IMG/VR virus record: IMGVR_UViG_3300031673_000039
Location: 1-61,707 of that record
Length of the DNA stretch: 61,707 nucleotides
Strand: one strand, 5' to 3'
Origin: a virus
The first letter of the stretch is position 1. Each line of letters starts with the position of its first letter. Under the pieces are notes generated by a model. It saw nothing but the letters and a program-made list of their open reading frames with translations. It did not search any database and was not told where the DNA came from. The translations under genes were made by a program, and so were the position numbers. Below, piece after piece: positions 946 to 57,990 of this stretch.

Positions 946-3306
946 TTACTTCACGGCCTTTAATTTAGTCTTGCTGGGGAACTTGCTGACCATGTATGCG
1001 CGGTCGTTGTCGGTGATGTTCCAGTTAATCTCTAAGCCGCGGAAGACTTCTTCGCCGTTGCGGATGACCTTGATGTCTAGTCCATGGTGGCGCAGCATCT
1101 TGCTGAACTTGTAAGCGCCGTCCGGTGCTGAGCCTGTGCAGTGTTTAAAGACACAGTGCAGCTCGTCACGAGTGAATTTGTTTTGCTTTTCATATAGGAT
1201 ACGTTTGAGGATGTCTACATACATGCTGGCGGTGTAGCTGCCGCCATTAGCTTGTTCATGCATGGTGGCTGCATCCGGTAGGGCGTCCAGCAGGGTGCCG
1301 AAGTCTCCTTCTTTAAGTGCGTTAGCGGTGGCGTCCAGGCTGGTGATGCCCAGGTGCTGGATGGCGGTGCGCTCTTCTGTCTGCAGGATGGTTCGTGCTG
1401 CTTCTGCGTTGGTAGCGCGGTGTTGTAGATGATGGGCAAAGGCGCTGAGTTCTTTGTCTGAGCCTATGGCGGTGACGACTTTCTCTGAGGGGAGGTAGCG
1501 CTCGGTCTGGTAGCTGCCGACGTTGTAGCGTCGGTCACCGACAGGAATGTGTACGGGCTGGTTCTTGTTGCTGGCGAAGATAAAGCCCGTGAAATTGTTG
1601 ACCATGTAGGCATCGGTACGCATGCGGCGGATGGTGATACTGGGTTCGGTGATTAGGTTCCGCATGTCGCTTTCGATGCCCTTGGCATTGGTGAACATGT
1701 CGGCGTCGATCTCGTCGACGAAGACGATCAGGGCATTTTCCATCCAGCCGTTGAACTTTTCGTTGAATTCAGAGGCACGCATGGCATGTACGTGCTTGCG
1801 TCCGAAGAGGGGCATGAGCACTTTGTTGATCAGCATGCCCTTCCCAGTCCCATACGTCCCATGAAGTATCCATGCGGTCTGAGGTTTCTGCCTGGTCTGG
1901 AACATGTAGGCCAGCCAGTCCAGGAAGGCTGCTTGTACTTCCTTGGTACCTACCGCGCTATCGAGGAGTTCCTGAATGTTAGGGAAAGGAGCACTGCGCT
2001 GGTTGTCTTCGTGCATGTAGTGGCTGGGCGTGAAGGTGTTGATGATGTGGTCAACAGGGTCATACACTGTGGGGTTGAGCGGGTCGAACTTGAGTTGCCA
2101 CTCGGGGACGAAATCACCTAATGGTCTTCCGTGGCCCTTGAGGAAGTCTTCGATCTGAACTCGGTTCTTGGCGCGGTGGATCTCAAGGTGCTTGCTCCCT
2201 TCATTCCAGGTACCTTTATAGTAGTCCCCCGTGGCTTTGTCGCAGAAGGCGAGTAGAGTGTCGCCGGTTTCATTGGGTGTGGTGTTGGCCGAGCTGGCTG
2301 CGTGCATGCGTTCGGCGTAGTAGCGGGGGAGGATGTCTTTGATGTAGGGGAATGCCTCACCCTTGAAGTTGTGGAGTAGTTTCAGATTACCGCGTGGGTG
2401 GAAGTAGCCCTTGCTGTTACCGCCATTCAGATTGAAATAAATGAAGTCACTGAGGCCATCGTCGAAGACTTCATAGTGGGTGATTTCGCCTACCCCGCGT
2501 TGGGTTTCATGTTCGCCGTCCATGGTAGTTTTGATGTTGAGTTTGTCCATCCCTGCTGCGATGCGCAGGTTGTTGACGATAGTCCGAGCTTCTTTTTTCA
2601 GAGTGTCTAGTGGGCGTAGGACAATCTTGGTTACATCCAGGGTGAGTTGCACCTTGGGTACCAGTTGTACGCGCTCACTGGGGGGAATAGGGCTCTTCAT
2701 GTTATTGAAGATGGGTTCAGCGATATAGATCAGTTTGTCGTTCTGGCATACGGTGATGTCCAGTGGCCAGTGTAGGGCGTGGCCGGCAGGTGCTAAGGTA
2801 AGTGTATCCTTGAGCACGGTGATGGTGAGGTTGAGGTGCATTAGCCAGGCCTTGAGTTCAGGTGCTGGTCGTGGACTGCTTAACCATACAAAGATGTGGC
2901 AGGATAGAGTTTTGTCTTTGGGATCGAGCTTATAACTGCTGCTGTATTGCACGACATAGGCTACATGGTCCATGCCTATGGATTTCATGAATTCATCGGG
3001 GTTGTTGAATTGTGCACGATCCAGATCGAAGCAGATGAAGTGTGTGGTTGTTTCGGTGCGTGTGGCGCCGGCGCGGGATTCATCGTTCAGCTTGCGTTCG
3101 AGTTTGCCCTTGAGCAAGCAGGGTTTAGCTGCCGTCATGGACTGGGCTTTGATGTGTTTGAACAGATCGTTGAGGTTGTTGGCCTTCAGGTTCAGGCTGG
3201 TGAAGTTTTTGCGGTGGGGGTAGGCTTCTTTATGGAGACTACCGTCTTTGAGTTTTGTTATTGTTTTTGTCAACGGGGCATCCGTCGATAGGAATGTCAG
3301 GTCCAT
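946..3306 (-). CDS. Bifunctional primase-polymerase (AEP-like N-terminus) / SF3 D5-P4-type helicase
   Basis: 786-aa ORF. DxD motif FICFDLDR and downstream SCHIFVW resemble archaeo-eukaryotic primases. Walker A GTYGTGKG and Walker B VFVDEID resemble SF3 helicases. Confidence 0.8.
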   Translation of the reverse strand: MDLTFLSTDAPLTKTITKLKDGSLHKEAYPHRKNFTSLNLKANNLNDLFKHIKAQSMTAAKPCLLKGKLERKLNDESRAGATRTETTTHFICFDLDRAQFNNPDEFMKSIGMDHVAYVVQYSSSYKLDPKDKTLSCHIFVWLSSPRPAPELKAWLMHLNLTITVLKDTLTLAPAGHALHWPLDITVCQNDKLIYIAEPIFNNMKSPIPPSERVQLVPKVQLTLDVTKIVLRPLDTLKKEARTIVNNLRIAAGMDKLNIKTTMDGEHETQRGVGEITHYEVFDDGLSDFIYFNLNGGNSKGYFHPRGNLKLLHNFKGEAFPYIKDILPRYYAERMHAASSANTTPNETGDTLLAFCDKATGDYYKGTWNEGSKHLEIHRAKNRVQIEDFLKGHGRPLGDFVPEWQLKFDPLNPTVYDPVDHIINTFTPSHYMHEDNQRSAPFPNIQELLDSAVGTKEVQAAFLDWLAYMFQTRQKPQTAWILHGTYGTGKGMLINKVLMPLFGRKHVHAMRASEFNEKFNGWMENALIVFVDEIDADMFTNAKGIESDMRNLITEPSITIRRMRTDAYMVNNFTGFIFASNKNQPVHIPVGDRRYNVGSYQTERYLPSEKVVTAIGSDKELSAFAHHLQHRATNAEAARTILQTEERTAIQHLGITSLDATANALKEGDFGTLLDALPDAATMHEQANGGSYTASMYVDILKRILYEKQNKFTRDELHCVFKHCTGSAPDGAYKFSKMLRHHGLDIKVIRNGEEVFRGLEINWNITDNDRAYMVSKFPSKTKLKAVK

Positions 3307-3342
3307 GGGTTCACCTCGGTAACTCTGGGATGCTCTGAGCTG

Positions 3343-3364
3343 AATCGCACAGATTGTGAAAGAG
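3343..3364 (-). promoter_or_regulatory. Copy of the recurrent CTCTnnCACAATCTG motif, about 40 nt upstream of the primase-helicase start
   Basis: The minus strand reads CTCTTTCACAATCTGTGCGATT. By hand alignment it matches the best plus-strand copy (19899-19920) at 16 of 22 positions. Confidence 0.4.
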
Positions 3365-3840
3365 TGTACGCTTGAATAATTAATGTGTGAAGATGTGTGC
3401 TAGATGAATATTTGGTGATGCTGAATACTGAAACATTTTGTATTGAACAGATAAACAATCTGTTTGTGAATAGTAAACAGATTGTGCAAAAACAGGGGTG
3501 TTTAAAAAGCTCAAAAAGACTCGATGTTTCACATTTTAGAAGATGTATTTAAGACTCCACTTAAAATGATATTGGGTGACTGTTTTACTCGGGTATTATG
3601 TTACGAATTAAAGTGTCACATTTGGTCAAAGTGAAACAGAAAGTGAAACAGGCTATGAAGTCAATGTTTACAGGGGTTGGATGGTTATTTATATACTAAA
3701 TGTTACACTGTTACAGATTTTTAGGTCTACTTTGTACTGTAACTATTACTAATAATAAATATATAGCTGTATATATAGGTTGAAGTTTTAAAATGTGTAA
3801 CAGGTGTAACTTTTTCGTCCCATAGTTTCTTGCGGATGTT

Positions 3841-3871
3841 AAAAATGACCACCGCGATGAACTGCGATGGT
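3841..3871 (-). terminator. Rho-independent terminator candidate after gene 3880..4872
   Basis: Minus strand: ACCAUCGC-AGUUCAU-GCGGUGGU hairpin (one G-U pair) followed by CAUUUUU. Confidence 0.55.
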
Positions 3872-3879
3872 CGTGTTGG

Positions 3880-5586: not shown

Positions 5587-5781
5587 CTACAGCTGGCCCT
5601 TGCGAACCGCTTCGTGGTAGGTGTAGCTAGCGCCGATGTCGCTGAAGAAACCGACGACGGCAGACGGAGCTGCACCGATGGTGATGGCGGCACGCTGAGT
5701 CAGTGTGGAGTCATTGCCTTTGGCAGTAACCTTGGTAGGGTTGATCTTGGCATTCGCTGCGCGCATTTGTTTGATGTTCAT
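5587..5781 (-). CDS. Hypothetical small protein (64 aa)
   Basis: AAGGAG RBS. ORF followed by a terminator. Confidence 0.6.
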   Translation of the reverse strand: MNIKQMRAANAKINPTKVTAKGNDSTLTQRAAITIGAAPSAVVGFFSDIGASYTYHEAVRKGQL

Positions 5782-6031
5782 GATGAAGCTCCTTGAAGTG
5801 AGAGCTAGATCGAGATTGATCTAACTACACATCAACCGCTTTACAGGTGCGCGGGTTCATGCGCACCCATAACTCGGAATACGAAACCGAATCCGAACTG
5901 GGTGGCCTGTTGGGAAGGGAGGGGGAGGGATGCCGAACGTCCATACTCAACAAATTTTCATGAAATATTTTTTCCAGAATATTTATGACGATGTTCTTCT
6001 GAAGAACCTGCCTTTTATTTTTTATAATTTT

Positions 6032-6280
6032 CTACAACTTTTTTCTACGGGTGATGCACACAATCGGAATATGAATCAATTCTCCGTATGGGGAGGACAT
6101 TCCGTCAGCGGAGGCATTCTGCGCCAGCACCAACTCATGCTTATTTTCTTTAACCAAGAACCCACATGAGCAACACTTGGCCGATCGGTTTCGCAAAGCC
6201 TCGATGTCCGCGCTCCTCTGCCAGCCACTTGTCGTCGAGCTGTCGATCCATTCCACGTAGAGTATTTTCTGCTTACTCAT
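6032..6280 (-). CDS. Hypothetical protein (82 aa)
   Basis: Start taken at MSKQKILYVEWIDS (ATG at 6278-6280), which overlaps the stop of the upstream gene by 8 nt. Confidence 0.55.
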   Translation of the reverse strand: MSKQKILYVEWIDSSTTSGWQRSADIEALRNRSAKCCSCGFLVKENKHELVLAQNASADGMSSPYGELIHIPIVCITRRKKL

Positions 6281-6534: not shown

Positions 6535-6981
6535 ATGGCCAGAAAGAAATCCACAATCATCCTTACCGAGAAGCAGGCAGTCTTCGTCGAGGCGATCCTC
6601 GACGGAAAACCCAACGGTAAAGCCATGGCCGAGGCGGGATATTCTCCGACACAACCTGCCACTACCGTGTTGCGTTCGCCCGATGTTGCATTTGCACTCG
6701 AGACGGCGCGCTCTGAACTCAGCTCGGCCGTGCAGATCAAGCGCGGCGACATGATTCAGGTGTTGGTAGAGGCGATCGACATGTCCAGGATGATGGCCGA
6801 CCCGATGGGAATGATTGCTGGCGCACGTGAGGTAGGGAAGATGTTGGGCCTATACGAGCCTGAGAAGAAGAGCATCGAGCTGACGACGAACCAGGCCCGC
6901 TTGCGCAGCATGTACGAAGCGCTGAGCGACGAAGAATTGCTGAACATCATTGAAGGAGAAAGCCGTGTCCTTGACTCGTGA
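6535..6981 (+). CDS. terS: Terminase small subunit
   Basis: MARKKSTIILTEKQAVFVEAILDGKPNGKAMAEAGYS... matches the LTxKQxxF...AGYS signature of Terminase_2-type small subunits. It sits immediately upstream of terL. Confidence 0.8.
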   Translation: MARKKSTIILTEKQAVFVEAILDGKPNGKAMAEAGYSPTQPATTVLRSPDVAFALETARSELSSAVQIKRGDMIQVLVEAIDMSRMMADPMGMIAGAREVGKMLGLYEPEKKSIELTTNQARLRSMYEALSDEELLNIIEGESRVLDS

Positions 6982-7201
6982 CGTAACTGAGCTTGACTTC
7001 AGACTTCCAGAAGTCCGTGACGCGAAACATGAGGACTACGAGTTTCGTGCTGACGGTGAGCTTGTTAGAAAAGACCGGTGGGAAACGGCCATTCGCCGTA
7101 TCGTGAGTGAGCTAGGGTTGAACCCTCGCCATTTCGAGATTAACGAGGTCAGTGATTGCGTCTGTAGGCTCAACTCCGATGATCGTTCCCGCCTTGTCTG
7201 A
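6965..7201 (+). CDS. Hypothetical protein (78 aa) between terS and terL
   Basis: GTG at 6965, 6 nt after GAAGGAG. Overlaps the terS end and the annotated terL start. Confidence 0.45.
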   Translation: MSLTRDVTELDFRLPEVRDAKHEDYEFRADGELVRKDRWETAIRRIVSELGLNPRHFEINEVSDCVCRLNSDDRSRLV

Positions 7202-10200
7202 CACGAGCTTCACCCTCTGCCCAGCCTGCGAAACTGAGCGCACGACAGCCTCTTTCGTCGGCGAAGTGTGCAACTTCTGCTACGACAAAGGTAAAACCGC
7301 CCCTGTTTCGGAGCCAGAAACCCCTCCAGGGCCGGCCAGGAAGCCCCGTCGCAAGGTCGGCGTCTCTCCGCAGGCGCCAACACCGCCCCAAGCGCCGGCA
7401 AACGCCTCGGAAGAGCCCTACACCGCCCCGCAGTTCGACGACAAACAGGCCAAAGCCAACCCCCAGGCCGAGCTGGCCAACCGAACCCTCGCTCGACGCC
7501 GCTTGCTACCCTTCATTCAACGCTTTCGACCGAAATACGACGCGGGTTGGGTCCACAAGGACATCTGCCGACGGCTGGAGCGGTTCAAGCGCGACGTAGA
7601 GCTTGGAAAGGAACCTCGACTCTTGTTGATGACACCTCCGAGACTTGGAAAGTCAGAAATTGGCAGTCGGCACTTCGCCCCGTGGGTGCTAGGGGATCAC
7701 CCCGACTGGGAAATCATCGCCGCCAGCCACACAACGTCCCTCTCGCTGAGCTTCTCGCGCTATATTCGCGACCTGTTGCGTGACCCGGCCTACCACGCCG
7801 TGTTCCCTCTATGCGTGCTCGATCCGAACAGTCAGTCGACGGAGAACTGGAACCTGACAGCCGGCGGAGGCTACCTTGCAGCAGGCGTGGGCTCGGCCAT
7901 CACAGGTAGGGGCGCGCATATCCTTGTTTTAGATGACTTAATCAAAGACATAGAGGCGAGTGATTCTCAGTCCCAGCGCGATAGTATCTGGGAGTGGTAC
8001 ATCTCCACCGCTCACTCGCGCCTCGCCCCCGGCGGCGGCGTGCTGGGAATTATGACCAGCTGGTCGGAAGACGACTGGGCAGGGCGCATTCAGAGTGTGA
8101 TGGCCGGCGGGGAGGGCGACCAGTTCGAGATCGTCCGCTACCCGGCGATCAACGAGGTCGGCGACGAGTACATCCTGGCCGACGACAGCATCGTTGAGAT
8201 ACCCGCAGGCGCACCGGTGCCCGCCGACGCTGTCATGACTCGTCCGCACAACTCCGCCCTGCACGAAGCGCGCTACACCCTGCAGGCGCTGCTCAGGAAG
8301 AAGGCGAACTACATCGCCTCCGGATTGAAGCGGATGTGGGACTCGCTCTACCAGCAGAATCCTACGCCGGACGAGGGTATCTACTTCAGCAAGGACATGT
8401 TCCGCTACTACGTGCACGCCCCTCACGCTAGGCACCGCTTCATCTATCAGGCATGGGACTTCGCCATCACCGAGGGCGCGCAGAACGACTGGACGGTTGG
8501 GGTGACGATCCTGCAGGACGAGAACGACAATCTGTTCGTGCTCGACGTCCTCCGGTTCCGCAGCGCAGATGGAAACATGATCGTCGACACCATGCTCGAC
8601 TACTACGAGCAGTGGTGCACCAAGGACGTCGGGTCCTCACTGCTGGGTGTTGAGGACGGGCAGATATGGAAGACGCTCAAGTCCCAGTTCACCAAGCGCT
8701 GCGAGGAACGTCGCATGTACCCGGCCTACGAGACCCTGGTGCCGCTGACCGACAAGATGGTGCGCGCGAACCCGTTGAAAGGGCGGATGCAGCTCGGCAA
8801 GGTCTACTACCCCAAGGAAGCCAGCTGGTTTCCGACGTACCAGCGCGAATTGCTGAGGTTCCCGGCAGGGAAGCACGATGATTGCTTTTCTGACGACACT
8901 ATGGTAGACTGCCCTCTCAGAGCTGTGAGAATGGGCTCGCTGAAGGACGGGGACGAGGTGCTTACTTACGACGGAACCAACGTTATTGTTGGGATTGTCA
9001 GTGACTATCACTGCACAGGGGTAAAACTGTTGCTGGAGGTGGTGCTAGACGACGGCACTATTTTGGAAATCACTCCTGCGCACCCCGTACTCACTTCAAC
9101 GGGGTATGTCTACGCGGGCGATTTAACCAGCGCCAGCCAAATAGTGAGGAAGAACTTATGCAAATTCAGAGATACGGCCTTAAGTGGGGGAAAAAAGGGA
9201 GGGGTTATTACCAGTCCACAACAACCGTCGATGGTAAACGTCTGTGGCTCCATCAGTACGCCTATGCTCGCATTTACGGGGAACAACCTGTGGGCGCTCA
9301 TATCCACCACAAAGACGATAATAAAGATAATAACGAACTGGATAACTTACAGTGCCTCTCAGCTAAAGAACATGCTGGTGAACACTCAGAATCAAGGTGT
9401 GCTCACGGTAGAACTTCAGAGCAACTACTGCACCTCGAGAATATCCGAAGCAAGGCTGCCGCTGCGAAAGCCGGCGCTTACACCAGCCCTAGAAGGCTGC
9501 GAAAAGGTGTTGCACGCAGTCGAACATGCCCCGAGTGCAAGAAAGAATTTACTCTTAAACTTCGCGATAACGACGCTACGATTTATTGCTCACAAAAGTG
9601 CCGTTGCAAGCAAACTAACAAGCACAGTGACGACGTTTATTCGACGCCTATTAAGTGCGAGTATTGCAGCACAGAATTCATCCCCGGCCCCCACGGTGTC
9701 GGGCATAGTTTGTTCTGCTCCGAGAGCTGCCGAGATAAAAAGCGATACGCAGAGAAACATATTTCGCGAAAGTGCAAGTGTTGCGGGGCAACAATGCGGC
9801 TCGCAAAAGGGAACGCCTCAAGCTACTGTCAAACTTGCCGAGAAACAGGCGCCGACAAACACAAGCGCGAATGTTCGGCCTGCGGGCGAGAGGTTCTTTC
9901 CCGCCTACCTAATGGCTCCGTATTCTGCAATAGAAAATGTGCTAACAACGCCCGAAGACTTACGAGTAACCCAGCACGCCACGAGCGATACCGACAGGCT
10001 ATTCGTGAAGGTCGTCTCAGCCCGGAGGACCGGGTTCCAACCGACATATAACTTCGACGTGGCGGGGACGCGAAATTTCCTGATCCACGGCGGGGTGGTC
10101 GTGCATAACTGCATAGACGCCACAGCCTGGGCCGTGCGCCTTACGCTGTCCCGCTCGGCGCCGAAGCTCCCGCAGCCCAAGGAGCTAAAGAGCTGGCGCG

Positions 10201-54088: not shown

Positions 54089-55471
54089 CTAAATTAAGAC
54101 CCTGAGTTGGTCAGCGAAGGCGTCCGCGCGAATGGACTTGCCTGTCAGGCGCTCCCAGGCGATTTCGTCATAAGTGTCCCTGGCAACTACGGTGATGGTT
54201 TCGGTCTTCTCGGTCTGGCCGATGCGGTGGATGCGTTTCAGACCTTGTTTATACCATTCCAGGTTGTCCGTCGGGCTGGCCCAAATAGTTCGTGTGCCCC
54301 GTGTCCAAGTCAGGCCGTGCGCTGCGCTCTTGGGGTGAGCGAGGATTTCGTCGTATTTGCCGGCCTGGAAGTCGCGGGTGATTTCGGTTCGTTCTTTGTC
54401 GCTGGTATTGCCGTCGTACACGGCGAAACTGATTCCGCGTTTTGTGCACTCCTTGATCAGTTCCTCACGCTGGTGTTTCCACTGGAAGAACACCACGCTG
54501 TGGCGAGCTTCCTGCGCTAGGTCCGTGACGAATTCGTAGCGATTGCTGTCGAAAGTGCTATATTCACGGTCTCCGCCAGTATCTCCGTCGTTGTAGATGG
54601 CTCCTGATGCAATCTGCAGCAGCTTGACGCGGAGCACTCCTTTGTTAATCGCGCTCAGTGTCTTACCCTTGACTTGGGTAAGCTGGTGTTTTTCCATCTC
54701 CAGGTAGTGCCTGTGATGCGGGGTGCTCAAGTTGACGGCACGAGTGTACGCGTGGTTCTTTGGGATACCGACGCATTCCTCGAAGAGGTGTTTGATGCTG
54801 ATGTCTTGAATCAGCGCGCCGATGATGCTCTCGACGCCGGGTTTGTCTTCCCACTTCACCATCTTGGTATCGGGACCTACTTGAGTCGGCGTGCATACGT
54901 TGGAGCGGAAGTTGAAAAACGAGGTACCGAGGCGTTTGCCACCATCGAGCAAGTAGAATTGGTGCCACAGATCGCATAGTCCGTTTGGGTCGGGCAGACC
55001 GGACAGGTTACGACGGTATTCGAAGGGGTTTATGATCTTAGCCAGGTTGCGTGAACGTCCCGAAGTATGATGTTTGAATGCGGTTGACTCATCGTTGATG
55101 ATGGTGCCTCCTTCAAATTTTTTCCAGAATTTTCTTTTGTCCTGTTTGACTAGCCAGTTTACTGCGTCGTGGTTGGTGATATAGACGTCAGCTTCTTTGG
55201 TGAATGCTTCCTTGCGGTTTGTTGCGTACGCTATGGACAGTCGCATGCCGGGGGCGAAGGAACGGAAGTCGTCCGCCCAGGCGCTTTCGAGCGTCGAACG
55301 AGTTGCGGTGACGATGGCCGGTGGGCCACCCTTGTATCGACGTTCGGCGAAGTCTTCGACCTCGACGCGGGTCTTGCCCGTGCCGGGTTCGCTCATGTCG
55401 AAGAAGCGGGGTTGTTCCTTTAGCCGCGCTTTGGTTTCGGCCTGGTGGGGGAAGAGGGGTGGGGGTTTCAT
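54089..55471 (-). CDS. SNF2-family (SF2) helicase/ATPase
   Basis: Motif I EPGTGKT, motif II IINDESTAF, motif III-like NLSGLP, motif VI QGLKRIHRIGQ. Confidence 0.9.
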   Translation of the reverse strand: MKPPPLFPHQAETKARLKEQPRFFDMSEPGTGKTRVEVEDFAERRYKGGPPAIVTATRSTLESAWADDFRSFAPGMRLSIAYATNRKEAFTKEADVYITNHDAVNWLVKQDKRKFWKKFEGGTIINDESTAFKHHTSGRSRNLAKIINPFEYRRNLSGLPDPNGLCDLWHQFYLLDGGKRLGTSFFNFRSNVCTPTQVGPDTKMVKWEDKPGVESIIGALIQDISIKHLFEECVGIPKNHAYTRAVNLSTPHHRHYLEMEKHQLTQVKGKTLSAINKGVLRVKLLQIASGAIYNDGDTGGDREYSTFDSNRYEFVTDLAQEARHSVVFFQWKHQREELIKECTKRGISFAVYDGNTSDKERTEITRDFQAGKYDEILAHPKSAAHGLTWTRGTRTIWASPTDNLEWYKQGLKRIHRIGQTEKTETITVVARDTYDEIAWERLTGKSIRADAFADQLRVLI

Positions 55472-55650
55472 AGTAAATCACTCATGACTTCCCAACCTAA
55501 TTCGGTTGTGCGATCGCGTAAGTATTTTTCATTTGAAGATAACCATTCTTCGCATTTTTTGAGGCTCCACTTAGGGCGTAATTCTTTTACGTCTTCAGCT
55601 CGCCATTGAATGTCAGCGTAAGGTTCTCCATAGAATTCTTTTTTAGCCAT
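55468..55650 (-). CDS. Hypothetical protein (60 aa)
   Basis: ATGA overlap with the SNF2 gene start. Confidence 0.5.
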   Translation of the reverse strand: MAKKEFYGEPYADIQWRAEDVKELRPKWSLKKCEEWLSSNEKYLRDRTTELGWEVMSDLL

Positions 55651-55659
55651 GATTTTCTC

Positions 55660-55893
55660 CTAAATCAATTTATCCGCCGCCGTTCCGGGCGGAGTGACTT
55701 CGTTCATTGGATCGCCACGGAACAGCTTGGCGAGGGGCGAGTAGTGCATAGTGCCATTCTGCATATGGTGGGCGCAGAGCACGTACTCATTCTTGCCTGT
55801 TTTGCGGTTCTGGCATTCGGTGACGCATAGGGTCTGGTTGTGGGCGGCGTGCAGGATGGTGCCGAACTGGAGTCTGGCGCGCTTGGTAATCAT
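55660..55893 (-). CDS. Hypothetical Cys/His-containing protein (77 aa)
   Basis: Start at MITKRARLQF with ATGA overlap to the upstream stop. Confidence 0.45.
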   Translation of the reverse strand: MITKRARLQFGTILHAAHNQTLCVTECQNRKTGKNEYVLCAHHMQNGTMHYSPLAKLFRGDPMNEVTPPGTAADKLI

Positions 55894-56102
55894 GATGGTT
55901 TGAGGCGATTGAGCCATGTTCCCAAAGTAGGTAATAGTTTGTAGCTGGTTGTGGACATTGCAGGTATCTTGAAAGAGGGTGCCGAGTTGAGCGCGATAAT
56001 TGCTCGTTGCAAATCGTCGACACATGCTTCGAGGGCGTCCTTCAGGTCTTCGATCTGTTCATCGTTGCTGTCGTACTGGTTGTCGTCGAGTGGGTTTTTC
56101 AT
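55890..56102 (-). CDS. Acidic hypothetical protein (70 aa)
   Basis: ATG at 56100-56102 after AAAGGAAAA. MKNPLDDNQYDSNDEQIEDLKDALE. Confidence 0.5.
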   Translation of the reverse strand: MKNPLDDNQYDSNDEQIEDLKDALEACVDDLQRAIIALNSAPSFKIPAMSTTSYKLLPTLGTWLNRLKPS

Positions 56103-56618
56103 TGTTATTTTCCTTTTGAAATACTTACACCGCAACACTCGGTCCTGGAGGTCGTTGATTAGACTGGCTCCATTCGGTAATCAGCCCGCGCGGCTTGCGC
56201 GCCGGATGCTGCGGTGTAAGTGCCGGTTACGGTTCCGGCGGGCAAGAGCTGTCATCCATTTCTGGGTCGTGTGCAAGTGCCCCGATTTCAAAGCAACCCC
56301 ACCGGAGTGCGGATACTTTGTATTTAGTGAGAGATCCGATAGACGCGCTAAGAATTGAACGAATTCAAGTTGTCACGGAGATATGGTAGTCATCCTTGAC
56401 TTTCTGACGTCGTTTTATCTTGAGTCTATCCTATCTCGCTGGGCTCTCTCTCATTTCGCTAGTTCATCCGAGGAATGACCTCGGCATCAATCGCCCACAA
56501 GGCTGCCGCCTGTTTACTATCATTAGTCTGGTTGTGGTGCACCACAGAGCCAGGGTGCTTGACAAGGTTCTCAATTGCGGTAGAGAGCGAGCAAGCGGCA
56601 GCCTTGTGGGCGAGTTCT
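56103..56618 (-). other. 516-nt ORF-free, hairpin-rich segment (candidate structured RNA or cis-acting DNA element)
   Basis: No minus-strand ORF longer than about 20 codons. 18-bp perfect inverted repeat 56492-56509 / 56595-56612. 11-bp inverted repeat 56124-56134 / 56210-56220. Hairpin CCGAGG-N5-CCTCGG at 56468-56484. Palindrome GTGGTGCACCAC. Confidence 0.5.
56559..56586 (+). promoter_or_regulatory. Plus-strand sigma70-like promoter candidate inside the 18-bp-stem loop (would drive an antisense transcript into the hexamer array)
   Basis: TTGACA (56559-56564), 16-nt spacer, TAGAGA (56581-56586). The last -10 base is A rather than T, so strength is doubtful. Confidence 0.25.
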
Positions 56619-56978
56619 TTACACCCCTACAGAACAGTGCCCGGTACCACCTAGTGACTCCAGCTCCAGCTCCGGCTCCAGCTCCCGCTCCAGCTCCAGC
56701 TCCCGCTCCGGCTCCCGCTCCGGCTCCAGCTCCAGCTCCGGCTCCAGCTCCGGCTCCCGCTCCAGCTCCAGCTCCAGCTCCAGCTCCCGCTCCGGCTCCA
56801 GCTCCAGCTCCAGCTCCCGCTCCGGCTCCCGCTCCGGCTCCAGCTCCAGCTCCAGCTCCCGCTCCGGCTCCGGCTCCGGCTCCAGCTCCGGCTCCAAGCG
56901 ACTTGCATTAACGCGGCGTTCATTTTTGGCTTCTTGGCAAGGTGGCTGTAAGTTCACACATGTCCAGTAGTGCGCCAC
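56619..56978 (-). CDS. Polyanionic (Glu-X)40 repeat protein with a Cas4-nuclease-like C-terminal tail (start uncertain)
   Basis: Same orientation as its neighbours. 40 Glu alternate with 19 Leu, 12 Pro and 8 Arg, ending in ESLGGTGHCSVGV. No convincing RBS for the GTG at 56978. Overlaps 56920..57261 by 59 nt. Confidence 0.4.
   Translation of the reverse strand: MAHYWTCVNLQPPCQEAKNERRVNASRLEPELEPEPEPERELELELEPEREPERELELELEPERELELELELEREPELEPELELEPEREPERELELERELEPELELESLGGTGHCSVGV
56658..56896. repeat. About 40 tandem CCNGCT hexamers
   Basis: Perfect 6-nt periodicity. Only the third base of CCN varies (A/G/C). Open in all six frames. Confidence 0.95.
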
Positions 56979-57261
56979 GATTGATGTAGACTAGCAGCCC
57001 TTGTGGATAGGGTTCGCACTCCTTGACCTTGCCTTCGGCGACGAACTGCATGAAGCGGTCGGTTTCGGGTATCCAGGAGCAGTCGACCAAGATGAGGTCG
57101 GAGTCGGTAACCGATTGAAGGTTTCCTGTGTAGATCATGGTCACGGTGCGGACAATGACGTTCTTGCCGACGGGGTAGTTGCTGTGTGTTGGCGAGTTTG
57201 CAGGTGTTGAAAGTGCTTGGATTTCGCGGATTTGTTTTAGAGTTAGGTCTTCGATGTTCAT
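56920..57261 (-). CDS. Hypothetical protein (113 aa)
   Basis: AAGGAGAAA RBS. Clean ORF directly after the Cas4-like nuclease gene. Confidence 0.6.
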   Translation of the reverse strand: MNIEDLTLKQIREIQALSTPANSPTHSNYPVGKNVIVRTVTMIYTGNLQSVTDSDLILVDCSWIPETDRFMQFVAEGKVKECEPYPQGLLVYINRGALLDMCELTATLPRSQK

Positions 57262-57288
57262 TGTGTTTCTCCTTGATGAGTGTTATTT

Positions 57289-57990
57289 TTAAACGCCTAC
57301 GGTGCAGTGTCCCGTGCCGCCCAGTGTCTCGGGCTTGAAAGGACACCAGCGACAGCTGTAGGCATTCGGGTTTGGTGGAAACGTCGTCGCTTCAGTCATT
57401 TTTCGCGCCCGGTTGTCGAAGCCTTTCAGGCAGCGCAGACCTTGGGCGCGTGTTACGGTCATGGTGGCAAGCTCGTTTTGGTCGAAATACCATAGTTCAG
57501 TGGTAATTGTTTCGACTTCGGGTTCACGGATGAAAGTAGCCATTGCGTAGAGCTGGAGTTGTTCGCCGTGTTTGATCTCGTTGCCGAAACGGCGACCGGA
57601 CTTATAGTCAATTGGCACTGCGTGTGTCTTGGTGAGTCGCACCATGGCATCGAGTTTCATGCGGAACCAAGCGGTTTTCCAGTCGGTCGGCTGCCAGTTG
57701 CGGTCGAAACCCCAATCCCCTTCTAGGCTGACTATCCCTGAGTCGAAGTGTTTTTTGAGACTGATCATCTCATCCTTGAAGTGTTTGGTAGCTTCCTTGG
57801 GCGCTTCGGGTTGTTTACCACGCATCCAATCTTCGCAGCCTTGATGAATGGCTGTACCCCGATCGGATGCAGGACTTGGACGAGGGTCGGGGATACGTTC
57901 GACGTGTTTGAGATAGGCCCTGAATCGACAGCTCTCGAAGTCGAGTAGGCGGGAGTAAGAGGCACTGGTGATGGTTTTCGTGGTTTTCAT
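57289..57990 (-). CDS. Cas4/RecB-like PD-(D/E)XK exonuclease with a 4-Cys (Fe-S type) arrangement
   Basis: KLDAMVRL...IDYKSG (D...DxK), QLQLY (QhxxY), N-terminal Cys (FESCRF) plus C-terminal CRWC...GHC. Confidence 0.8.
   Translation of the reverse strand: MKTTKTITSASYSRLLDFESCRFRAYLKHVERIPDPRPSPASDRGTAIHQGCEDWMRGKQPEAPKEATKHFKDEMISLKKHFDSGIVSLEGDWGFDRNWQPTDWKTAWFRMKLDAMVRLTKTHAVPIDYKSGRRFGNEIKHGEQLQLYAMATFIREPEVETITTELWYFDQNELATMTVTRAQGLRCLKGFDNRARKMTEATTFPPNPNAYSCRWCPFKPETLGGTGHCTVGV

Follow-up and report, generated by a model that had tools for sequence, protein, structure and literature searches.

A gene-free segment in a phage early operon as a probable mosaic of folded RNA modules, one of them carrying the freshwater-1 hairpin

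The window treated here is the whole 61,707-nucleotide (nt) stretch of IMG/VR virus record IMGVR_UViG_3300031673_000039, which has the appearance of a complete phage contig (about 62 kb) and whose nearest cultured relatives are the KPP25-like Pseudomonas phages, at a helicase amino-acid identity of only about 35%. The subject is a gene-free segment at positions 56103-56618, situated in a slot between a Cas4-like nuclease gene and an SNF2-type helicase gene (Table 1), where the surrounding genes are all encoded on the minus strand. The same sequence recurs without change in an independent Logan assembly (L350, run SRR8554505), so the segment is not an artefact of assembly. Our favoured reading, which we hold to be moderately probable, is that it is a mosaic of RNA modules that fold autonomously, are conserved in part and are embedded in the transcript of an early operon.

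The segment is non-coding. Most of it (56139-56618) forms the longest run on the minus strand without an open reading frame (ORF) of at least 40 amino acids (aa) inside the minus-strand operon. An earlier sequence-only reading had described the segment as ORF-free, with a longest minus-strand ORF of about 19 codons; there is indeed no supported gene, although the figure of 19 codons holds for ATG starts only, as two 36-aa ORFs started by TTG cross the segment on that strand. The mechanical ORFs of the plus strand run to 59-163 aa, and none of the ORFs crossing the segment on either strand has a match in Pfam or PHROGs. The inverted repeats on which that reading had built are present and slightly longer than described. 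The larger, given as 18 perfect base pairs (bp), comprises 19 (56491-56509/56595-56613), extended in the minus-strand RNA to 22 bp by U.G, U-A and G-C pairs, and the smaller, given as 11 bp, comprises 12 perfect bp, or 20 bp at 85% (56123-56142/56202-56221). Equally present are the palindrome in the loop of the larger repeat, a 14-nt TGTGGTGCACCACA (56533-56546) that contains GTGCAC, and the hairpins CCGAGG-N5-CCTCGG (56468-56484) and TTGAA-N4-TTCAA (about 56356-56369).

Folding predictions show the structure to belong to the sense-strand (minus) RNA. The 548-nt minus-strand RNA has a stability z score of -6.46, with none of 100 shuffles as stable; stem-loop I alone, the element closed by the larger repeat, reaches -7.96; and the remainder of the segment (56103-56490) gives -5.20 on the minus strand versus -2.10 on the plus strand. 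Background values from 26 sense-strand windows of the same length, taken from 38-61 kb, have a mean z of -0.76, a standard deviation (sd) of 1.41 and a minimum of -3.55. The predicted 22-bp helix appears in both the minimum-energy and the centroid structures.

Stem-loop I, or module I, is built of the P1 clamp, a small hairpin, helix P2 and a 26-nt hairpin, with an interior of about 80 nt. A homologue occurs in L351, an ENA contig reached through homologues of the DUF6117 protein, in which a Cas4-like gene is followed by a 111-nt copy of stem-loop I, a DUF6117 gene and an SNF2 gene. The interiors of the two elements are about 96% identical, as against 59-69% (DNA) for the neighbouring genes. 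Their alignment is ungapped, with 98.7% of cells paired, and all 12 differing columns are paired columns: eight of them constitute four compensatory pairs (three in the clamp, one in P2), two keep a G.U pair, and the remaining two make up a single C.A mismatch. All 41 unpaired aligned columns are identical, and were substitutions to fall at random, the chance of all 12 landing in the 70 paired of 111 columns would be about 0.004. Stems that covary around invariant loops are what a functional folded RNA usually shows. The clamp, which in L351 spans 16 bp, shows two wobble-compatible changes alongside its three compensatory ones, and P2 contains two conserved G.U pairs, its pair 52-94 being U-A in the window and C-G in L351. 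The small hairpin is identical in L351 and so provides no covariation evidence.

In the hairpin enclosed by P2, stems of 4 and 5 bp flank a CUC/A internal loop and a UGCA loop caps the 5-bp stem; this hairpin connects the window to an RNA family known from large freshwater phages. An Rfam scan, which the sequence-only reading had proposed as a check, returned no match at gathering level over the whole window; with a permissive threshold it gave a freshwater-1 (RF02979) match within the loop of the large stem (56513-56564, minus strand), at 26.2 bits (E = 0.0023), against a gathering threshold of 72 bits for this family and scores of 75-86 bits for true members in the same tool. With E values of up to 10 admitted, the interval 55900-57000 yielded only freshwater-1 and two chance matches to microRNAs. 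Within the match the first hairpin of the family is intact, with 16 of 16 invariant bases and nine of nine pairs at 56528-56553, and two of the pairs are changed compensatorily relative to the freshwater-1 consensus. The invariants are those of the family (G, the CUC bulge, UG..G-UGCA-C..CA, A and C) and the other pairs covary; similar 5' (UGU.A.G.ACC) and 3' (AGUAAA) flanks are present, and the phage origin and the sense-strand location are likewise shared. Beyond the hairpin the likeness ends. Where the Rfam model has an 18-nt second hairpin (6-bp stem, 8-nt loop), the window has 7 nt (the ACUAAUG region), as does L351; canonical members sit in tRNA arrays, and the window has no tRNA genes; and the window hairpin is enclosed by P2 and the 22-bp clamp, both of which canonical members lack. 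A covariance model of the full canonical freshwater-1 RNA of about 155 nt (model R1, whose E values are rough) has a single match in the window, at 56528-56553 (22.1 bits, E = 0.003), and aligns there only at model positions 100-125, so that only the 26-nt hairpin is demonstrably shared. An alignment by eye of the window interior with the canonical 5' domain (CUUGGCUCUC...CGCAA...GAGA) was not confirmed by the covariance model. As four of the five features compared (score, second hairpin, tRNA context and 5' domain) depart from the family, module I is best described as a new variant, related to freshwater-1 but not a member of it. The reference for the freshwater-1 RNA motif is Weinberg et al. 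2017 (PMC5737381), whose text is silent on freshwater motifs, and a description of this RNA was not found in the other literature searched.

The hairpin family itself is real, phage-specific and invariant in sequence. A search pattern made from the bases common to the window and freshwater-1 (GCTCTGNNGTGCACNNCAAC) found 58 loci in IMG/VR, 55 of them canonical freshwater-1, on contigs of up to 288 kb, and two of them (L079 and L090) different RNAs that bear the hairpin. Among the 30 distinct hairpin sequences, 97.4% of cells are paired, all five of the pairs left free by the pattern covary, and none of 500 shuffles did as well. One position is most commonly U.G (17 of 30 sequences), which places the hairpin structure on this RNA strand. 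A scan of bacterial genomes, one per species, gave at least 120 pattern matches, and since just one of the 120 listed is genuine, and that one probably phage DNA in a metagenome-assembled genome, the hairpin is not a copy of a host RNA. Metagenome scanning for non-canonical hairpins produced 103 matches, about six of them real and all of the L090 type described below (one being the L090 contig again), and relaxed patterns added one new member, L405, among at least 119 matches listed. Neither model R1 (75 related loci, 645 kb) nor a regular-expression search for the hairpin found a match among relatives of the window.

Canonical freshwater-1 RNAs are tightly bound to tRNA genes: in all 52 loci whose examined DNA includes a tRNA, the nearest one shares the strand of the RNA, with a median separation of 110 nt and, in 51 of them, one of no more than 300 nt. 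The 62-nt Rfam model represents just the 3' third of a longer conserved RNA, about 155 nt in length, which occupies the spacer separating two tRNA genes (L069-L126, for example L076 1342-1544; alignment A3). Its features are a P1 helix ACAGA/UCUGU, a P2 hairpin, an invariant UGAAAG and a P3 helix CCUUGG/CCAAGG, and 20 of its 32 predicted pairs show compensatory changes. A minimal RNase P RNA was considered for this extended molecule and dropped, the likeness (ACAGAA, GAAAG) being superficial. Several large contigs that bear freshwater-1 (L072, L081, L104, L105 and L123; L115, L118, L119, L082, L102 and L114) also carry genes resembling transfer-messenger RNA (tmRNA) and unusual tRNAs, including a CUA-anticodon tRNA ('Pyl' by ARAGORN) and four-base anticodons (ttaa, tgga).

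The same hairpin is also found in clamped RNAs of other kinds. The L090 type (L090, L182, L146, L169, L227 and L405), which has no Rfam entry, and the further clamped type of L079 resemble stem-loop I in having a closing clamp helix of 10-24 bp around an interior that bears the 26-nt hairpin; their interiors are otherwise unrelated to the window in sequence, their clamps are shorter than that of the window (10-12 bp in the L090 type), and their contexts vary, from between tRNAs to upstream of a RecT/exonuclease/SSB gene set. The gene order of L090 is like that of the window, with a Cas4-like gene, the element, a small gene and an SNF2 helicase, and the Cas4-like protein is only 25% identical to that of the window. 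The L090-type RNA is about 125-150 nt long (L090 962-1085) and consists of a stem ..ACUG/CAGU.., GGUCAGUGG, the shared hairpin, CCUUCAUCCCGG and a 3' GGAUCGCAACC hairpin, the last of which is also seen in the 5' domain of many canonical freshwater-1 RNAs. The SNF2 helicase of L090 (1621-4089) has 822 aa as compared with 460 in the window, and it has a central insert and an overlapping 225-aa ORF (2867-3544), a candidate intein or homing-endonuclease insertion.

A second region of conservation, module II (56326-56489), comprises hairpin H1 and the long imperfect hairpin beyond it. In L507, and identically in L508, the stop codon of a Cas4-like homologue (76% identity) is followed directly by H1 and by the base of the long hairpin, whose two strands are 93% identical to the window, versus 70% for the adjacent Cas4-like gene; the apical part of about 60 nt (56358-56415) is replaced. 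Pairing is kept in 97.9% of cells of the basal helices, which show one compensatory A-U to G-C change; H1 shows an A-U to G.U change in L507 and is degenerate in L351. Coming from two sequences, this pattern is consistent with selection but falls short of proof. A mini-ORF after H1 has 2 codons in the window and 18 in L507, and is thus not a conserved gene. Exact-pattern scans of IMG/VR for the sequences of modules 2 and 3 returned nothing. The 3' third of the segment (56103-56325), whose module 3 stops 21 nt short of the gene D start codon, was seen only in the window phage and the identical Logan contig, and it may have arrived together with gene D, whose protein matched only its own sequence among 5.8 billion proteins.

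How the present layout arose is suggested by a remnant at the border of the segment. Immediately upstream of stem-loop I lies a diverged copy of the last codons of the Cas4-like gene, which differs from the 3' end of the intact gene (57289-57330; C-terminus ETLGGTGHCTVGV and stop) mostly at third codon positions. Its reading frame passes through the hexamer array and is not that of the real SR-repeat ORF. Gene B and the SR-repeat ORF would have recombined as a module into the 3' end of a Cas4-like gene, upstream of stem-loop I, leaving this scar. The scar indicates that stem-loop I once stood directly 3' of a Cas4-like stop codon, and the same arrangement, a Cas4-like stop followed by the element, is found in L351 and L090.

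Other routine explanations and searches gave little. No match came from GenBank phages (BLASTN with 55600-57300), from 68 related IMG/VR loci (blastn and nhmmer with the segment) or, for copies of the repeats elsewhere in the genome, from self-BLAST. There is no Rfam or ARAGORN match to group I or II introns, GOLLD, ROOL, tmRNA or tRNA in the region tested, and a tRNA and tmRNA scan of the window found none. One weak site was the only intrinsic terminator predicted (56298-56313, minus strand), below the shuffle expectation of 2.4, and no U run follows stem-loop I or H1. Several identities were considered and rejected: a retron msr/msd (no reverse transcriptase nearby), a group I or II intron (no Rfam signal), a CRISPR-repeat mimic (no known likeness to such repeats), a kink-turn (no G.A pairs after the bulge) and a mimic of an anticodon arm or T-arm (wrong loop size).

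The evidence favours a function at the level of RNA over a DNA site or an antisense promoter, and the structured non-coding RNA that the sequence-only reading had put forward is upheld by a strand-asymmetric fold far beyond background, a sub-threshold Rfam match to a phage small RNA and two conserved sub-regions with compensatory changes. In the mechanism that we propose, the segment would be transcribed as part of the minus-strand early operon mRNA, and the clamps would let each module fold on its own inside that long molecule. RNase III processing sites consist of about two turns (at least 20 bp) of uninterrupted double-stranded RNA, a length that the predicted 22-bp helix attains, and the clamps might be cut by such a double-strand-specific RNase, releasing a small stable RNA and setting defined mRNA ends; of the roles raised in the sequence-only reading, those of a decoy, an antitoxin-like RNA and an RNase III processing platform are candidates. 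The invariant hairpin and the loops would then form a surface read by a protein or RNA partner, module II would be a second conserved element with a variable apical arm, and the 3' third would serve as a structured leader ending in a second clamp just before the gene D ribosome-binding site.

A number of observations weigh against this mosaic of RNA modules. Over its full length the segment is more stable than chance on the plus strand as well (z = -5.07). Modules I and II each have one homologue (that of module II in two collections, L507/L508), and their covariation was equalled by 33 and 235 of 500 shuffles, respectively, a weak statistic with two sequences; the high identity of their interiors could reflect recent horizontal transfer instead of purifying selection. 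No homologue of 56103-56325 was found in the collections searched or in 511 loci (3.9 Mb). The related clamps, at 10-16 bp, are too short for RNase III, so its cleavage is not a general rule and excision is speculative. The only recurrent protein near the 58 hairpin loci is DUF932, which is common and stands near four of them. Most relatives, moreover, lack the elements, their Cas4-like gene abutting the helicase gene or their slot holding small protein genes, so the modules are dispensable accessory cassettes in a hypervariable slot. The contexts of eight more protein clusters (three DUF6117, five Cas4-like) showed no element, and in a crude scan the Cas4-SNF2 slot did not tend in general to contain structured RNA. 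The prospect raised in the sequence-only reading, that homologues might lack the region or compensatory changes, was therefore realized in part: most relatives are without the region, and the two partial carriers do show compensatory changes.

Two other accounts were weighed. The segment could be a leader that acts in cis alone, for mRNA processing, stability or translational insulation, setting mRNA ends and half-lives like the RNase III sites of the T7 early region, keeping the gene D ribosome-binding site open and producing no trans-acting RNA; we regard this as possible, with a modest chance of being right. The clamps in L351, L090 and L079 end about 10-25 nt before the next start codon with a Shine-Dalgarno sequence right after, module 3 is laid out likewise before gene D, and the 22-bp helix fits RNase III. 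The helix alone suffices for such sites, however, yet unpaired bases and the 26-nt hairpin are invariant across very distant phages, and RNAs with this hairpin are also located between tRNA genes or ahead of terminators, with no downstream ORF to regulate. It is rather unlikely that at least the 3' two-thirds of the segment are functionless recombination debris, made of decayed genes and junctions with incidental structure, even though the slot is a mosaic hot spot in which relatives carry different small genes or nothing, the scar of the Cas4-like 3' end is clear, gene D is an ORFan and 56103-56325 has no homologue. Against this, the sense z of -5.2 lies about 3 sd beyond the genome background and is strand-specific, no frame shows protein similarity, and module II, earlier thought unique, is 93% conserved in L507. 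The 3' third is the part most open to such a reading, although its predicted sense-specific stability argues against it.

Two further proposals came from the sequence-only reading, and both are set aside. A DNA-level origin, packaging or recombination site, with the palindromes acting as cruciforms or protein-binding dyads, is very improbable. A perfect 19-bp inverted repeat, a 14-bp palindrome with GTGCAC, a position among replication genes and the stable fold of the plus strand might have recommended it, but the clamp arms differ between relatives while staying complementary, which leaves no sequence-specific dyad, and the loops are invariant; the helices rely on G.U pairs, which would become A.C mismatches in a cruciform or on the opposite strand; and the palindrome is imperfect as DNA in most family members though paired as RNA (U.G in 17 of 30). 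Iterons, an AT-rich unwinding region and copies of the repeats elsewhere in the genome are all lacking, and a better origin candidate is the AT-rich island at 3307-3879 (GC about 41%), which adjoins the DUF5906 (D5-type primase/helicase) gene (946-3306, minus strand) and is more plausible than 56103-56618 as a replication origin or divergent promoter region. Scarcely credible, in our judgement, is an antisense unit in which a plus-strand promoter in the large loop, TTGACA-N16-TAGAGA, drives an RNA across the hexamer-repeat gene. The box is present, with a perfect -35 hexamer and 16-nt spacing at 56561-56588, but a sigma-70 scan of 55400-57400, which required a -35 hexamer and a -10 hexamer whose second base is A and whose sixth is T, found no site, and TAGAGA lacks the invariant final T. 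TTGACA is complementary to the conserved UGUCAA in the sense RNA; in L351, which has no repeat gene to regulate, it reads TTGGCA, and because that change is half of the compensatory P2 pair, selection acts on the sense RNA.

A bolder extension of the favoured RNA-module reading would make the 26-nt hairpin a portable handle for one conserved factor of phage-host conflict, such as a host RNA-targeting defence nuclease or a tRNA-processing or tRNA-repair enzyme, and the segment an RNA decoy array for anti-defence or host takeover. In unrelated phages the handle would be mounted on different scaffolds, on the RNA of about 155 nt of the tRNA arrays in large phages and on clamped cassettes excised from early mRNA in 60-kb phages. 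We offer this tentatively and consider it unlikely.

Among known systems, each of the RNase III sites of the T7 early region is one hairpin, about 60 nt long, in which the helix geometry and not an invariant loop is the defining feature. Like these, and like the lambda sib and N-leader sites, the window elements are long hairpins between genes of an early transcript, just upstream of a ribosome-binding site; their loops, by contrast, are invariant, their cleavage is speculative, and the homologous clamps of 10-16 bp are too short. The T4 species 1 and 2 RNAs are stable non-tRNA RNAs co-transcribed with phage tRNA genes. They, together with GOLLD and ROOL, are similarly structured phage-borne RNAs with no known function that travel as accessory cassettes, and their tRNA-array context is common to canonical freshwater-1, whereas the window element lies in an mRNA operon and has no sequence or Rfam similarity to any of them. 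GOLLD and ROOL are among the RNAs discussed in PMC5737381.

Structured RNAs of phages are far less charted than phage proteins, and the present case bears on this in several ways. The freshwater-1 hairpin appears as a modular unit that is not confined to tRNA arrays but is found on at least three other scaffolds, among them early operons of mid-sized phages, and the Rfam family is incomplete to the extent that its curated model represents the 3' third of a longer RNA. In the Cas4-SNF2 slot, RNA modules behave as accessory gene cassettes where relatives carry small genes. At 26 nt, the hairpin would be a compact bait for the partner, and hence the function, of the whole family; the result would be an ordinary one if the modules are mere processing signals.

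Table 1. Genes and predicted RNA features between the Cas4-like and SNF2-type helicase genes, in order of transcription
Feature	Position	Strand	Remarks
Cas4-like PD-(D/E)XK nuclease gene	57289-57990	-	
Gene B, 113 aa	56920-57261	-	
SR/SG/SW-repeat ORF	56651-56923	-	start overlaps stop of B in ATGA
Scar: diverged 13-codon copy of Cas4-like C-terminus (ESLGGTGHCSVGV) and stop	56619-56660	-	74% nt identity to 57289-57330
Gene-free segment	56103-56618	- (sense strand)	between SR-repeat ORF and gene D
Stem-loop I, 123-nt clamped RNA element	56491-56613	-	fold z = -7.96; L351 homologue
P1 clamp, 5' arm	56592-56613	-	22 bp with 56491-56512
Small hairpin UCUC-UACCGCAAUU-GAGA	56569-56586	-	predicted fold
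Helix P2, 56560-56565 with 56517-56522	56517-56565	-	encloses invariant hairpin
Invariant hairpin CUGG-CUC-UGUGG-UGCA-CCACA-A-CCAG	56528-56553	-	Rfam RF02979 match and covariance model R1
P1 clamp, 3' arm	56491-56512	-	pairs with 56592-56613
Hairpin H1, CCGAGG-UCAUU-CCUCGG	56468-56484	-	conserved in L507
Module 2, long imperfect hairpin	56326-56450	-	basal strands 56416-56450 and 56326-56357
Three predicted hairpins	56290-56320, 56241-56283, 56223-56240	-	prediction only
Module 3, 20-bp clamp around three-way interior	56123-56221	-	19 of 20 positions paired, two G.U
Shine-Dalgarno (AAGGAAAA) and ATG of gene D	56100-56116	-	unpaired in predicted fold
Gene D, 70-aa ORFan	55890-56102	-	stop overlaps DUF6117 gene start in ATGA
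DUF6117 gene	start at 55893	-	
60-aa gene	between DUF6117 gene and SNF2-type helicase gene	-	
SNF2-type helicase gene, 460 aa	54089-55471	-	

The genes that border the segment have features of their own. The real start of the DUF6117 gene is the ATG at 55893, which leaves it translationally coupled to gene D, whose product has an acidic N-terminal half and could be a small anti-defence or regulatory protein. In L004, the 1157 nt between the DUF6117-region genes and the SNF2 gene (6793-7949) contain no plus-strand ORF of 45 aa or more and fold with a z of about -2.8 (simple shuffles). On the other side of the segment, gene B and the SR/SG/SW-repeat ORF (56651-57261, minus strand; L055-L062) constitute a conserved two-gene module of variable repeat length, with a conserved N-terminus MNA..M..W.RS, that other viral contigs carry in unrelated settings; of the frames of the hexamer array, SR is the real one, and EL/EP and PA are not. 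In L055 this module is followed by a 520-nt ORF-free stretch (5613-6134) that is not significantly structured (z = -1.75) and has a weak match to a group I intron (17.7 bits, E = 0.08).

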